A DNA stretch of 64,000 nt from a virus, in IMG/VR virus record IMGVR_UViG_3300046170_000301. One strand, 5' to 3'. Position numbers and translations under genes: made by a program. Below the pieces are notes generated by a model that saw nothing but the letters and a program-made list of their open reading frames with translations, was not told where the DNA came from and ran no database searches. Below, piece by piece: positions 4,834 to 62,250 of this stretch; positions within the stretch are counted from its first letter, which is position 1; each line of letters begins with the position of its first letter.

Positions 4834-5926
4834 CAGACTCTACAGAATTAGCATCGACTTTTCCATACAAGTCAAGGAAAGCACTCTTGGTTTCGTCATC
4901 AAAACGATTTACACAAACTTTAAGTGCTTTCATTTTGTTACCGAAGATAGAGTAAGCACGAATGATGTGGGTAAGACGACGAGTAGAGATGACTTCATCA
5001 ATACCACCTTCATCAAAAGTTCGTCGAATCTGATTTGCCCAGAAAGCAAGACGCTCACAGAACTCTTCATTATGGCAATCAAGTTTCTTAGAAAGCTTCT
5101 CAAGAATCTTCTGCTCAGTTTTAGGAGTAGGATAATCTTGCTCAAAAGTCAAAGCAAAACGCTCAAGGAATGCTTCGTTCAAAACATTGGTGCCGATAAA
5201 TCGACCATCATCAGAACCTTTACCTTTGGTGTTTGCTGTAGCAATCACAGTAAAACCATCTGCTGGTTGAATACATTTACCAGTTTTCTTCAGGAACACA
5301 CCCTTACCTTCAAGAATAGATTGAAGACAAAGGATTTTGTTTGAAGCAAGGTCAATCTCATCAAGGAGAAGAACAGCACCTCGCTCAAGTGCTTCAATCA
5401 CAGGACCGTTGTGCCAAACAGTATCGCCATTGATAAGACGGAAACCACCAATCAAATCATCTTCATCAGTTTCGATGGTGATATTAACACGAATGAGTTC
5501 ACGCTTTAGTTGAGCACAAGCTTGTTCAACACTGAAAGTTTTGCCATTGCCAGACATGCCAGTGATGAAGACAGGATAAAAAATACCAGAAGAAATAATT
5601 TTCTTAATATTAGTGAAGTTGCCAAAGCTGACGAAGTTAGCATCTTTTTCAGGAACAAGAGATTGGAAGGGAATCATAACATGCTCTACTTCTTGTTCAG
5701 CAGGTTCAGCAGAAGGAGAGTTGTAGGTGTTTTCGATTTGTTGGGCAGTAAGATTCCACTGACCACGACCAACTTTATAATCTTCAAGACGCTTGCTAAT
5801 AGTCACATAAGTGCTTTCAAATTGCTTAGAGGCGTCGATGATAGCATTGCTACCAATTTCGTTGCCATAGTATTCTTTGAGATAGTCAACGATTTCGGCG
5901 GTGGTCACGTTAAAAGAGCGAGGCAT
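4820..5926 (-). CDS. cobS: CobS-like / MoxR-family AAA+ ATPase
   Basis: Walker A GMSGNGKT, LLLDEID, ATANTKGKG, NEAFLERF, ISTRRL. Confidence 0.9.
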   Translation of the reverse strand: MPRSFNVTTAEIVDYLKEYYGNEIGSNAIIDASKQFESTYVTISKRLEDYKVGRGQWNLTAQQIENTYNSPSAEPAEQEVEHVMIPFQSLVPEKDANFVSFGNFTNIKKIISSGIFYPVFITGMSGNGKTFSVEQACAQLKRELIRVNITIETDEDDLIGGFRLINGDTVWHNGPVIEALERGAVLLLDEIDLASNKILCLQSILEGKGVFLKKTGKCIQPADGFTVIATANTKGKGSDDGRFIGTNVLNEAFLERFALTFEQDYPTPKTEQKILEKLSKKLDCHNEEFCERLAFWANQIRRTFDEGGIDEVISTRRLTHIIRAYSIFGNKMKALKVCVNRFDDETKSAFLDLYGKVDANSVESDEEN

Positions 5927-29546: not shown

Positions 29547-32354
29547 TTAAGCGCTATTAAGCGCTGCGATTTCAGCTTGCAGATCCTTGACCATAGTGGT
29601 CAATTCTTGTACGGCATTAACCAGTACAGGAACGAGGTGCTCGCCTTTGTACTTTAAGCGCTCGGGATCTTCAACGTCAATGATGACGGGATTGTCACCC
29701 TCAAGCGCAAGGATGTCCTGTGCTTTAAAGCCATAGCGCACATCACCGTTAGGCTTTTCGGTGTTGCGATCCACCTTGAATTGATAGGCGGTTGGCTGTA
29801 ATTGATTAACAAAGTCCAGACCATAAGGAACTGGAGCGAAGTTCATCTTGTCACGCTCGTCTGATACGACAGTCCAGGCAACCTGAACATATGCGTTGGT
29901 GATAGCAGTGTGACCCAGGACAAGACGGTTGTCTTCTGTTGTGGGGTCAAACACTGGCGCATATGTTCCAGCATTGTTCAGGAAGCCGATTCCGATATTT
30001 CCAGAGCCAGTGGTGTTGTTACGGAGAGCTTCGTATCCATTAGCTGTGTTATTAACGCCAGTGGTGTTGCTACGGAGAGCACCTCTTCCAGTAGCTGTGT
30101 TGTTATCGCCAGTGGTGTTGCTATAGAGAGCTTGGTATCCATTAGCTGTGTTATTAACGCCAGTGGTGCTGCTATAGAGAGCTTGGTATCCATTAGCTGT
30201 GTTATTAACGCCAGTGGTGTTGTTAAGGAGAGCTTGGTATCCAGTAGCTGTGTTGTTATCGCCAGTGGTGTTGCTAAAGAGAGCACTTAATCCATTAGCT
30301 GTGTTGAAATTGCCAGTAGTGTTGTTACGGAGAGCACTTAATCCAGTAGCTGTGTTGTTAGAACCAGTGGTGTTGCTACGGAGAGCTTCTCTTCCAGTAG
30401 CTGTGTTGCTATTGCCAGTGGTGTTGCTATAGAGAGCTTGGTATCCATTAGCTGTGTTATTAACGCCAGTGGTGCTGTTACGGAGAGCTTGGAATCCATT
30501 AGCTATGTTGTTATCGCCAGTGGTGTTGCTATAGAGAGCTTGGTATCCATTAGCTGTGTTGAAATCGCCAGTGGTGTTTTCACGGAGAGCTAGGTATCCA
30601 GTAGCTATGTTGCTATTGCCTTCGGTGTTGCTATAGAGAGCTAGGTATCCATTAGCTGTGTTGTTATTGCCAGTGGTGTTGCTATAGAGAGCACCTATTC
30701 CAGTAGCTGTGTTGTTATTGCCTTCGGTGTTGCTATAGAGAGCATCTTTTCCAGTAGCTGTGTTGTCATCACCAGTGGTGTTGCTATAGAGAGCATCTTG
30801 TCCAGTAGCTGTGTTGTCATCACCAGTGGTGTTGCTACGGAGAGCACCTTGTCCAGTAGCTGTGTTGTCATCACCAGTGGTGTTGTTACGGAGAGCTAGG
30901 TATCCATTAGCTGTGTTGTTAGTACCAGTGGTGTTGCTACGGAGAGCACTTAATCCATTAGCTGTGTTTAAATTGCCAGTGGTGTTGTCACGGAGAGCAT
31001 AAAATCCATTAGCTGTGTTGAAATAGCCAGTGGTGTTGCTATAGAGAGCATCTCTTCCAGTAGCTGTGTTGTAATAGCCAGTGGTGTTGCTATAGAGAGC
31101 TAGGTATCCATTAGCTGTGTTCTCACTGCCAGTGGTGTTGCTATAGAGAGCTTGGTATCCAGTAGCTATGTTGCTATTGCCAGTGGTGTTGCTAAAGAGA
31201 GCTTGGTATCCATTAGCTGTGTTATTAACGCCAGTGGTGTTGCTATAGAGAGCTTGGTATCCATTAGCTGTGTTATTAACGCCAGTGGTGTTGCTATAGA
31301 GAGCTTGGTATCCATTAGCTGTGTTGTAATCGCCAGTGGTGTTGTTACGGAGAGCACCTCTTCCAGTAGCTGTGTTGTTATCGCCAGTGGTGTTGCTAAA
31401 GAGAGCTTGGTGTCCATTAGCTGTGTTGTAATTGCCAGTGGTGTTGCTAAAGAGAGCTCTTGATCCATTAGCTGTGTTGCTATTGCCAGTGGTGTTGCTA
31501 TAGAGAGCATCTTGTCCAGTAGCTGTGTTTAAATTGCCAGTGGTGTTGTTACGGAGAGCACTTATTCCATTAGCTGTGTTGCTATTGCCAGTGGTGTTGC
31601 TATAGAGAGGACTTATTCCAGTAGCTGTGTTGTTATTGCCAGTGGTGTTGTTACGGAGAGCACTTATTCCATTAGCTGTGTTGTAATTGCCAGTGGTGTT
31701 GCTACGGAGAGCTTGGTATCCATTAGCTGTGTTGTAATCGCCAGTGGTGTTTTCACGGAGAGCTTGGTATCCAGTAGCTGTGTTTCTATTGCCTTCGGTG
31801 TTGCTATAGAGAGCTAGGTATCCATTAGCTGTGTTGCTATCGCCAGTGGTGTTGCTATAGAGAGCATCTCTTCCAGTAGCTGTGTTGTTATCGCCAGTGG
31901 TGTTAGCAGCTAAAGTGCCAGATCCTAAAGCCGTATTTGTAGAAACACCGCCCGAGCCCAGTCCAACAGTAACTGTATTAATCAATGCGTCGCCATTGAC
32001 ATCGAGCAAGGCTTGAGGATTACTCGTCCCGATTCCCACATCGCCACTGAACGTTCCGTTGAAAGCACCAATATCACTTACATTAATATTACCTGATCCA
32101 TCACGAAGAACCAGTTTGTTTGCAGTAGCAGAAGTATCAGCATCGTTAGTAACATAGATGCTGTAATAGTTACTTCCATCATTAGTTAGTTGCCAACGAG
32201 GAGTTCCAAAGAATGCATCATTGGACTCCCTCCATTTGAGGGCAACATCAGTGCCGCTTGTTCCTCTTGCAACTGTGATAAATGCGCCCGTTGCTACACC
32301 TGTCTCGTTTAGACTTAAACCATATTGAATGTCTAATGGTTTTTTAATTGCCAT
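29547..32354 (-). CDS. Tail fibre/adhesin with 17-aa beta-solenoid repeats and C-terminal intramolecular chaperone (peptidase S74-like)
   Basis: VGIGTSNP motif; repeats; SDERDK...GLDFVNQLQP...YGFKAQD...LVNAVQEL chaperone signature. Confidence 0.88.
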   Translation of the reverse strand: MAIKKPLDIQYGLSLNETGVATGAFITVARGTSGTDVALKWRESNDAFFGTPRWQLTNDGSNYYSIYVTNDADTSATANKLVLRDGSGNINVSDIGAFNGTFSGDVGIGTSNPQALLDVNGDALINTVTVGLGSGGVSTNTALGSGTLAANTTGDNNTATGRDALYSNTTGDSNTANGYLALYSNTEGNRNTATGYQALRENTTGDYNTANGYQALRSNTTGNYNTANGISALRNNTTGNNNTATGISPLYSNTTGNSNTANGISALRNNTTGNLNTATGQDALYSNTTGNSNTANGSRALFSNTTGNYNTANGHQALFSNTTGDNNTATGRGALRNNTTGDYNTANGYQALYSNTTGVNNTANGYQALYSNTTGVNNTANGYQALFSNTTGNSNIATGYQALYSNTTGSENTANGYLALYSNTTGYYNTATGRDALYSNTTGYFNTANGFYALRDNTTGNLNTANGLSALRSNTTGTNNTANGYLALRNNTTGDDNTATGQGALRSNTTGDDNTATGQDALYSNTTGDDNTATGKDALYSNTEGNNNTATGIGALYSNTTGNNNTANGYLALYSNTEGNSNIATGYLALRENTTGDFNTANGYQALYSNTTGDNNIANGFQALRNSTTGVNNTANGYQALYSNTTGNSNTATGREALRSNTTGSNNTATGLSALRNNTTGNFNTANGLSALFSNTTGDNNTATGYQALLNNTTGVNNTANGYQALYSSTTGVNNTANGYQALYSNTTGDNNTATGRGALRSNTTGVNNTANGYEALRNNTTGSGNIGIGFLNNAGTYAPVFDPTTEDNRLVLGHTAITNAYVQVAWTVVSDERDKMNFAPVPYGLDFVNQLQPTAYQFKVDRNTEKPNGDVRYGFKAQDILALEGDNPVIIDVEDPERLKYKGEHLVPVLVNAVQELTTMVKDLQAEIAALNSA
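29990..31910 (-). repeat. 51-bp (17-aa) tandem coding repeat, 37 full units plus one partial
   Basis: Consensus xNTTGxxNTA(T/N)GxxAL(Y/R/F), counted by hand; boundaries approximate. Confidence 0.95.
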
Positions 32355-57124: not shown

Positions 57125-57293
57125 TGCTCGACCTTTTGTAGAAATTTTTTTGGCGGGAATTTTTTTGGTTTCTCGGGTTTTTACCTTTGATTTTCCCTGT
57201 ATTATTTAGAGGGCTCTGGGAAACGTTTATAGCTTAGAAAGACGGTACTTTTTTAGAAACGGGGGCGCTTAGCATAATAATACTTAGCGCCAC

Positions 57294-57561
57294 GATTACG
57301 ATTAACTGTTAATTATAATTAACAAAAAATTACGATTAACTGTTAATTATAATTAACAAAGAATTACGATTACTTTGTATTAGTAATAACGAAAGAATTA
57401 CGATTACTATGTAATTATAATTAACGAAAAGATTACGATTACTTTGTATTAGTAATAACGAACGATTATGATTACTTTGTATTAGTAATAACGAACGATT
57501 ACGATTAACTGTTAATTATAATTAACGAACGATTACGATTACTTTGTATTATTAATAACGA
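57294..57561. repeat. Eight ~33-34 bp AT-rich tandem units (ATTACGATTA core; palindromic GTTAATTATAATTAAC variant and TTTGTATTAGTAATAAC variant)
   Basis: Units read directly. Confidence 0.92.
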
Positions 57562-57574
57562 CACACATAAATTA

Positions 57575-57862
57575 CAAAAATAGATTAATAACAAAAATCT
57601 GTGATTGTTGAATAATAGTAATAATCAGAAAAATACAAAAATATACTAATAACGAGAAATCATAGATTTTTAATTATTTGTAATAATCAAAAAATACAAA
57701 AATATACTAATAACGAGAAATCATAGATTTTTAATTATTTGTAATAATCGAGAAAATACAAAAATAGAGTAATAACAAAAATCTGTGATTATTCAATAAT
57801 AGTAATAATCGAGAAAATGCAAAAATAGAGTATTATTGAATAATCACAGATTTTTGTTATTA
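57575..57862. repeat. ~61-bp AT-rich direct repeats ending in a perfect 32-bp inverted repeat (57770-57801 / 57831-57862)
   Basis: Direct reading; arms checked base by base. Confidence 0.88.
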
Positions 57863-57894
57863 TTAATAATTAGCAAAATGCTAATTAAAGAGAA

Positions 57895-60744: not shown

Positions 60745-60936
60745 TTATAACTCCACCTCCCAATCGCCATCCTGGTTAATGTTAACCCAGAAAAAGTTCT
60801 TATTATTAACCGACCTCAAAAATAGTCGGTTGTTAACATGTTGCTCGACAATACACTCGGGGTTTCTATTCATTAAGTTGGCAAACCTGTTCCGAGCTTT
60901 CTTGCTCTTGGGGGTGATGAAAACAGTGTTAAACAT
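60745..60936 (-). CDS. Conserved small cyanophage protein (PKSKKARNRFANLM...D.DW)
   Basis: ORF with recognisable motif. Confidence 0.75.
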   Translation of the reverse strand: MFNTVFITPKSKKARNRFANLMNRNPECIVEQHVNNRLFLRSVNNKNFFWVNINQDGDWEVEL

Positions 60937-61073
60937 GTCAAAAATTGAATCGACACTGATAAGTTACCACCATTAGGGACACAGTGGTAACTTAATGTGC
61001 CCCTAAAACTACTGGCACAAACTAATGAAAACTCATTCTCTTTTAGTATAGGCTGGGGTGTAGTGGTGATAGT

Positions 61074-61751
61074 ATCATCAACTGCTGTTGTAGTTTCTAT
61101 CATCAACTGCTGTTGTAGTTTCTATCATCAACTGCTGTTGTAGTTTCTATCATCAACTGCTGTTGTAGTTTCTATTACCGACTCGACAGGATTGTTGGTG
61201 ATAGCATCATCAACTGCTGTTGTAGTTTCTATTACCAACTGCTGTTGTAGTTTCTATTACCAACTGCTGTTGTAGTTTCTATCATCAACTGCTGTAGAAT
61301 TGTTGGTAATAGCATCACCAACTGCTGTTGTAGTTTCTATCATCAACTGCTGTAGAATTGTTGGTAATAGCATCACCAACTGCTGTTGTAGTTTCTATCA
61401 TCAACTCGATAGGATTGTTGGTAATAGCATCATCAACTGCTGTTGTAGTTTCCATCATCAACTGCTGTAGGATTGTTGGTAATAGCATCATCAACTGCTG
61501 TTGTAGTTTCTATTACCAACTGCTGTTGTAGTTTCTATTACCAACTGCTGTTACAGTTTCCATCATCAACTGCTGTTGTAGTTTCTATTACCAACTGCTG
61601 TTACAGTTTCTATTACCAACTGCTGTTGTAGTTTCTATTACCAACTGCTGTTGTAGTTTCTATTACCAACTGCTGTAGGATTGTTGGTGATAGCATCACC
61701 AACTGCTGTTACAGTTTCCATCACCGACTCGACAGGATTGTTGGTGATAGC
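61074..61751. repeat. Mosaic minisatellite: 18 x 25-bp, 4 x 33-bp and 3 x 32-bp units
   Basis: A=ATCATCAACTGCTGTTGTAGTTTCT, B=ATCATCAACTGCTGTAGAATTGTTGGTAATAGC, C=ATCACCGACTCGACAGGATTGTTGGTGATAGC; parsed by hand. Confidence 0.95.
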
Positions 61752-61823
61752 ATCAAGAATGGTGAGAATCTCGTTACCATTCTTACCTTTCTTCAGCATA
61801 CTAATCATCAATTTAGTGGGCAT
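61638..61823 (-). CDS. Small hypothetical protein whose C-terminus is made of array units
   Basis: AGGAG RBS; GKNGNEILTILDAI N-terminal motif. Confidence 0.7.
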   Translation of the reverse strand: MPTKLMISMLKKGKNGNEILTILDAITNNPVESVMETVTAVGDAITNNPTAVGNRNYNSSW

Positions 61824-61825
61824 AA

Positions 61826-61981
61826 TTACTCCTGAATAGTGTAGTCAATAATGTTGTCAATAATACTGTTATCATCGTAATCATAACAGTATTCTTCTTC
61901 TTTATGATAAAGAAGTTCTTGTTCATAATAAGAATCAAACTTTGACCATGATTCTCCTTTTGAAAATGATACTTTTACCAT
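61826..61981 (-). CDS. Small acidic Tyr-rich protein, 51 aa (MVKVSFSKGESWSKFDSYYEQEL...)
   Basis: Hand-translated; abuts next start. Confidence 0.6.
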   Translation of the reverse strand: MVKVSFSKGESWSKFDSYYEQELLYHKEEEYCYDYDDNSIIDNIIDYTIQE

Positions 61982-62021: not shown

Positions 62022-62114
62022 TAATTTTTGAGATTTTCAAAAAACTTAATTTTCAAGTTTTCTTATTTTTCAAGTTTTCTTATTTTTTAAGTTTTTTGAA
62101 AATCTCAAAAATTA
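62022..62114. repeat. Perfect 28-bp inverted repeat with 37-nt loop containing a direct repeat
   Basis: 62022-62049 / 62087-62114 checked base by base. Confidence 0.9.
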
Positions 62115-62121
62115 GAAAATC

Positions 62122-62250
62122 TTACTTTCTCATAGGTGAACTATTGTAAGATTTGAAGATTGTAACCAGAATGAAGAGGGTGGCAACCACCCCCACAAAC
62201 CCCAACATGGTAATACTATTACCACTGAAGTCCAAAGTGTCAACAGTCAT
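62122..62250 (-). CDS. Small single-pass membrane protein, 42 aa (MTVDTLDFSGNSITMLGFVGVVATLFILVTIFKSYNSSPMRK)
   Basis: Hand-translated; one hydrophobic helix. Confidence 0.7.
   Translation of the reverse strand: MTVDTLDFSGNSITMLGFVGVVATLFILVTIFKSYNSSPMRK

Follow-up and report, generated by a model that had tools for sequence, protein, structure and literature searches.

We see the repeat array at 61077-61754 of a 64,000-nt stretch of viral DNA (IMG/VR record IMGVR_UViG_3300046170_000301; called the window in what follows) as a compound minisatellite that was born of slippage, is tolerated and cut short a small accessory early gene, a reading to which we give a probability of about 0.7. The array would have arisen in place by replication slippage or unequal recombination, and its persistence may reflect the dispensability of the gene, or at least of its tail, together with the self-renewal of tandem arrays via unequal exchange in a heavily recombining phage. 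Its untranslated 561 bp most likely lie in the 3' part of an early transcript and are, in our judgement, without dedicated function. On present evidence, the array is no new kind of functional element. The features to which the argument refers, all on the minus strand, are listed below, handles with L denoting related IMG/VR contigs.

61826-61981 (-), upstream 51-aa gene in the same transcription unit, with homologues in L001 and L002
61638-61823 (-), truncated 61-aa version of a conserved 58-aa hypothetical early gene (ORF, AGGAG, orthologue comparison)
61688-61755 (-), seed region in which module X is complementary to the Z-W and Y-X junctions (module parse, inverted-repeat search)
61077-61754 (-), compound minisatellite of 25 units (module parse, TRF, shuffles)
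61029-61076 (-), decayed remnant of the ancestral last 16 codons (alignment to intact orthologues)
61026-61028 (-), ancestral stop position, TAG in L001, L031 and L032 and TCA in the window (DNA alignment)
60996-61019 (-), conserved stem-loop just past the ancestral stop, also found after intact orthologues
60745-60936 (-), downstream conserved 63-aa gene (context)

Parsed into modules on the minus strand (X, 21 nt; Z, 11; W, 13; Y, 12), the 678 bp from 61754 down to 61077 are tiled without gaps by 25 units, namely 18 of 25 bp (WY, or A), four of 33 bp (XY, or B) and three of 32 bp (XZ, or C), in the order C A B AAAAAAA B A C A B A B AAA C AAAA. A previous sequence-only reading, which had described a mosaic array of about 680 bp with a non-triplet unit, is borne out by this parse, and the plus-strand unit order it gave is the exact reverse of ours. 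TRF assigns periods of 25 and 58 to 61077-61754, and the 21-nt unit core is present in 18 copies as against 0 in 100 shuffles. The term 'compound' minisatellite refers to intermingled unit types; here, head-to-tail units of 25, 32 and 33 bp lie inside the minisatellite range (~10-100 bp), and three unit types, built from four modules, are mixed within one array. As for the claim that the variant sites recombine independently, the sites do exist, but their independence is incomplete: GGT-AAT and GAT-GAT are tightly linked at the unit junctions, and the GTA variant occurs in 3 units only. Inside every Y module sits CAGCAG (22 copies in a single orientation across 61077-61754), which we take to be the recognition site of the type III enzyme EcoP15I.

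The ORF at 61638-61823, with AGGAG 5 nt before its ATG, reads XZ, WY and XY once each and terminates at TAA TAG within unit four, just as had been proposed from a translation of the first units and their run into a stop. Its 61-aa product combines ancestral residues 1-42 with 19 array-derived ones (43-61). Beyond these first three units, the other 561 bp (61077-61637) are untranslated; this agrees with the ~560 bp previously called non-coding, which do follow the new stop in the sense direction. The frame moves by one with each 25-bp unit, every unit having 2-3 stops in one of its three frames. Since TGA, TAG and TAA all recur in the array and any run of three 25-bp units terminates translation, the 561 bp are untranslatable under any genetic code. 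An alternative code for the array was rejected on the ground that all three stops recur. Serial +1 frameshifting through the array was rejected too, as it needs 18 successive shifts and the downstream remnant has decayed. A homopolymer sequencing error in GAAAC can likewise be dismissed: the same hexamer encodes a conserved M-E-T in intact orthologues, and the same out-of-frame reading is found on independent contigs.

Intact orthologues without the array number 18, of which 15 (58 aa) come from metagenomes and three (L001, L031, L032) from IMG/VR. Six related IMG/VR loci were retrieved with the 267-aa neighbour gene, none of them having the array; the closest, L001, has an intact 59-aa ORF as its syntenic gene, and the same stem-loop comes after it. 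Cultured cyanomyoviruses have an annotated hypothetical homologue (e.g. SfFR1_62 of Synechococcus phage Sf-FR1). The small protein has no match in Pfam, PHROGs, PDB sequences or Foldseek. For the intact family, AlphaFold2 (mean pLDDT 77) predicts helices at 3-12, 16-27 and 31-47 plus an extended tail, and by this model the 61-aa product retains helices 1-2 and most of helix 3. The tail alignment took in 14 intact sequences, and the last residues, P-T-L-E-E-I-x-F, are invariant in all 14. Acidic and ending on Phe in the family (P0003-P0022; L001 gene at 5122-5298), this tail may resemble the C-terminal tips of SSB-type proteins, which dock partner proteins; by analogy, the likeness offers a candidate lead to the function of the gene. 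A 90% protein cluster (cluster 7) that groups the 50-aa fragment P0009 with the apparently unrelated 419-aa P0023 is probably a clustering glitch. In L002 and L003, an unrelated 150-aa ORF fills the slot of the 58-aa gene (L002 5252-5704), flanked by a 42-aa homologue of the upstream gene and by the conserved 63-aa gene, which suggests gene-module swapping in this block of small early genes. Because a different gene occupies its slot in L002, the 58-aa gene is dispensable.

DNA alignments with L001, L031 and L032 find the 5' flank of the array colinear with the intact genes through codon 42, and the 3' flank picks up at codon 43 and goes on through the stem-loop; hence, the array is an expansion within the gene. 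The stem-loop at 60996-61019, whose strict pattern has one match in the window, forms the 3' edge of a one-gene module, and given the conserved 63-aa gene downstream, the open frame past the remnant is non-coding. That the remnant has kept the frame of the ATG at 61823 follows from 678 being 226 x 3; this multiple of 3 speaks against a tolerated minisatellite, the odds of it by chance being one in three. Within the remnant, three residues invariant among intact orthologues are altered, and 36% of positions differ from the 15 intact forms compared, as opposed to 9.6% among these forms themselves. For the N-terminal 42 residues, the corresponding values are 9.4% (window against intact forms) and 9.0% (among intact forms), and relative to the closest intact form, changes amount to 3/42 in the N-terminal part and 5/16 in the remnant (Fisher p = 0.03). 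To judge by these comparisons, the old tail of the small protein is released from selection; its N-terminal head may still be under selection, the evidence for this being modest. The tail, invariant as it is elsewhere, appears dispensable in nature, as the array-bearing gene indicates. Among the otherwise intact orthologues, P0007 (104 aa, JGI contig of 1539 bp) has its stop codon read as W, and its ORF continues through the stem-loop to the start region of the next gene, like the remnant frame of the window.

The same numbers matter for a protein-level reading that sees the locus as adaptive and contingency-like. Here, the new C-terminal tail would be beneficial, for example by escaping a host factor that recognises PTLEEIxF, and, through gain or loss of units, the stop would be preceded by a variable number of in-frame C+A and B units. 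The N-terminal 42 residues being family-typical while the old tail decays suggests a truncated protein under selection; moreover, three alleles end alike (RN(Y/C)NSSW), and 61 aa is near the ancestral 58. We nonetheless regard this reading as decidedly unlikely. The first out-of-frame 25-bp unit always terminates, leaving room neither for reversible ON/OFF switching nor for a varied C-terminus, and 561 bp of the array are irrelevant to the protein. In addition, the protein collection contains no in-frame expanded forms at 33-107 aa or at 108-2000 aa, and the contrast with the closest intact form is only one of 3/42 and 5/16. A contingency locus that swaps the C-terminus, as the sequence-only reading had suggested, also finds no footing in that no copy number restores the open frame.

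Next to these intact genes, other alleles with arrays do exist. The protein start of the window and its 5' array junction are encoded on 4 JGI contigs, and array-bearing alleles with different unit orders occur on at least 3 other public contigs (NCBI; non-identical arrays), so the array is not unique to one isolate, a condition named among those that would refute the sequence-only reading. P0001 and P0011 (NCBI contigs of 3107 and 3896 bp) are 61 aa long and share the new ending, their first 33-bp unit being different; in the array-internal peptide P0024 (3107-bp contig), B A C A A takes the place of the window's B A C A B A, and P0010 (281-bp contig) is a further array variant. As alleles were compared as predicted peptides rather than DNA, with polymorphism inferred from these, the unit order appears to differ between alleles in the manner of a VNTR. 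On this basis, we take the array to be a real polymorphic VNTR of one phage lineage. Diverged alleles in several assemblies imply some persistence, which is compatible with selection and in this respect counts against mere tolerance.

For a contig that comes from a metagenome, the array might instead be an assembly artefact, missing or far shorter in the real genome. Short-read assemblies are prone to errors at tandem repeats, and the interior array peptides P0008 and P0025 are found on one contig only. To our minds, however, this scenario is hardly credible, with the same 5' junction on four JGI contigs, related yet non-identical arrays on three NCBI contigs and flanks colinear with relatives. 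Besides, the longest exact internal repeat of the array is 90 bp, so that 150-nt reads or k >= 91 can resolve it, if not its exact copy number, which takes long reads.

Relatives without the array are equally informative about its distribution. It is absent from 8 distinct related IMG/VR contigs (L001-L006, L030-L033), so that syntenic arrays in relatives, raised before as a check, did not turn up. Megablast of the region against GenBank phages gave no match, and the exact unit pattern had 0 matches in IMG/VR. Single matches to this pattern in JGI metagenomes (23) are put down to chance, as none encodes the gene, while GTDB genomes yielded 7 single matches (Veillonella, various MAGs), 0 of them cyanobacterial. 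A kinship of the unit with host genomes or CRISPR repeats, raised before as something to look for, did not emerge either, there being no cyanobacterial match and no spacers in the array.

How the array came into being may be read from its modules, every one of which is, according to the module parse, a copy of the gene's own codons. Birth from the 3' end of a gene, as previously claimed, therefore holds for the coding-sequence origin in the gene at 61823 but not for the place, which is mid-gene (codons 24-42 of 58). In the lineage of the window, an imperfect direct repeat of 12 nt would have been part of the intact gene, one copy (GATGCTATCACC) at codon 24 and the other (GATACTATCACC) at codon 43, with a distance of 57 nt and hairpin-forming inverted repeats between them. 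Slippage at GATGCTATCACC/GATACTATCACC would have produced an in-frame 57-bp duplication (XZ + WY, codons 24-42). Misalignment at GGTGATG, a 7-nt word found at both the Z-W and Y-X junctions in differing reading frames, may then have given rise to the 25-bp WY unit with subsequent amplification to 18 copies, and internal deletions to the 33-bp unit. Hairpins in the seed region, where GTTGGTGAT-GCT-ATCACCAAC is a perfect 9-bp hairpin with an equivalent in the intact L001 gene, would favour polymerase stalling and slippage. We infer all of these steps from sequence, and the direct and inverted repeats already present in the gene seem to explain the birth, including that of a non-triplet 25-bp unit. 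The hairpin in the coding sequence (window 61722-61750; L001 5196-5232) has arms of ATCACT/AGTGAT in L001, L031 and L032 and of ATCACC/GGTGAT in the window, the paired synonymous changes keeping it intact, with two sequence types only.

A hairpin kept in this way could also fit a reading in which the array is a selected nucleic-acid element. As RNA, a multi-hairpin 3' UTR might stabilise the early mRNA or titrate a putative RNA/DNA-binding protein, possibly the gene's own three-helix product; as DNA, ~18 near-palindromic 12-mers at 25-bp spacing might be bound by a putative dimeric protein in the manner of iterons. In its favour, and by the same token against a tolerated minisatellite, the predicted array RNA is strongly structured, folding far better than shuffles (z = -8.4). 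Another point against mere tolerance is that the unit variant that was amplified is the one forming the 12-nt near-palindrome CAACAGCAGTTG. Further points in favour of a selected element are X modules complementary to the Y-W junctions, the paired-synonymous arms of the intact-gene hairpin in L001 and the window, and persistence of the array in several assemblies. Still, we think such an element unlikely. The strong fold is due to tandem copies of a partly self-complementary unit, any array of which folds well, so that the z-score is no evidence of function. None of the related phages examined, whether they have the gene itself or its neighbourhood, possesses the array; unit order varies between alleles, and neither a replication gene nor an unwinding region adjoins. 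What is more, neither the 12-nt near-palindrome nor the unit occurs elsewhere in the 64-kb window, cyanobacterial genomes hold no unit match, and the only match of the array in Rfam 15 (mir-191, 23.6 bits against a gathering score of 54, E = 0.13) is on the wrong strand. With the array missing from eight relatives, no Rfam family to match it and no unit elsewhere in the window, the sponge and iteron roles put forward by the sequence-only reading are unsupported. A more specific version, in which the conserved hairpin is a putative protein site amplified ~20-fold into a selected, transcribed multi-hairpin decoy, strikes us as highly improbable, and we give as little credence to its companion idea that the binder (perhaps the gene's own three-helix product) is titrated in early infection, with tail loss being part of the same adaptation.

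The genomic setting of the tolerated minisatellite we favour is that of a large phage. The window's own protein is encoded on a JGI contig of 152.5 kb, and the minus strand carries every long ORF of the window, with products typical of T4-like phages among them (large terminase, tail sheath, portal, major head protein, scaffold, baseplate wedge, CobS-like). The major head protein shares 84% identity with its counterpart in Synechococcus phage Sf-FR1, the next best matches being other cyanomyoviruses. The phage is a large T4-like cyanomyovirus with a contig of at least 152.5 kb, which removes the premise of a compact phage, whose retention of such an array had been said to suggest function. The neighbourhood of the array is a block of small early genes that can be swapped. 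Promoter-like sites and a GC hairpin (near 62160-62240), an inverted repeat, the 51-aa gene and the 61-aa gene with its array follow one another on the minus strand, and after the array come the stem-loop, the conserved 63-aa gene and the 267-aa GP88-family gene. The inverted repeat upstream of the 51-aa gene is perfect over 28 bp with a 37-nt loop (62022-62114); at the matching place, L002 has AT-rich 25-bp repeats (4953-5021). Elsewhere in the window, the arrays at 57292-57879 (34 bp x 8 and 61 bp x 5) are AT-rich and non-coding, and pieces of them are conserved at the syntenic place in L001-L005. These are better regulatory or origin-like candidates than the array at 61077-61754.

In our opinion, the locus provides a clean natural example of minisatellite birth, with the seed repeat, the hairpin and the out-of-frame microhomology still visible, intact ancestors available for comparison and a decayed C-terminal remnant left behind the array. 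It implies that non-triplet VNTRs can arise in genes of lytic marine phages and persist there as polymorphic alleles, and the array could serve as a strain marker for an uncultured cyanomyovirus population.

Comparison with known systems helps to place the array. Iterons of plasmid and phage replication origins share with it many direct repeats about two to three helical turns apart and a near-palindromic core. In contrast to them, the array has no adjacent initiator gene or AT-rich unwinding element, its neighbours being small hypothetical genes and the GP88-family gene; its units copy the codons of a neighbouring ORF, and related phages (L001-L006, L030-L033) lack it, so we do not class it as an iteron array or origin. 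Simple-sequence contingency loci, known from bacteria and phages, resemble it in having a repeat tract within an ORF whose length is not a multiple of three; their units, however, are 1-7 bp rather than 25 bp long, and the shifted frames of the array stop at any repeat number, so that no number restores a full-length protein as phase variation would entail. CRISPR arrays differ from it too, since its units abut each other with no unique spacers. Translational bypassing in T4 gene 60 spans a 50-nt coding gap. This case is alike in concerning a T4-like phage and in having both sides of the gap in the same frame; yet the gap here is 678 nt, and beyond it both the stop and invariant residues are gone. 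We rejected bypassing of this kind, as a decayed remnant without its stop is not translated under selection.

Closer likenesses are found among tandem repeats that grow by slippage. The window itself has a 51-bp x 37 in-frame array (30006-31904) inside a 935-aa ORF (29547-32354, minus strand) that matches virion structural, tail spike and fibre PHROGs with 7-9 repeated stretches. Both arrays belong to the same genome and show slippage-driven expansion and mosaic unit variants, but the 51-bp array is triplet-periodic within an open structural protein, whereas the 678-bp one is non-triplet and non-coding over 561 bp. A search of the literature yielded nothing specific to phage minisatellites; yeast minisatellites or VNTRs are exemplified in PMC2566889. 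The best match, we think, is with compound minisatellites, which likewise consist of head-to-tail 25-33 bp units of several interspersed types, the near-identical units having a few shuffled variant sites and an order that differs between alleles, and which share a presumed origin by slippage or unequal exchange. What sets our array apart from these is that it resides in a lytic phage and has a main unit that is non-triplet though coding-derived and that it destroys the frame of its host gene instead of encoding a repeat protein.
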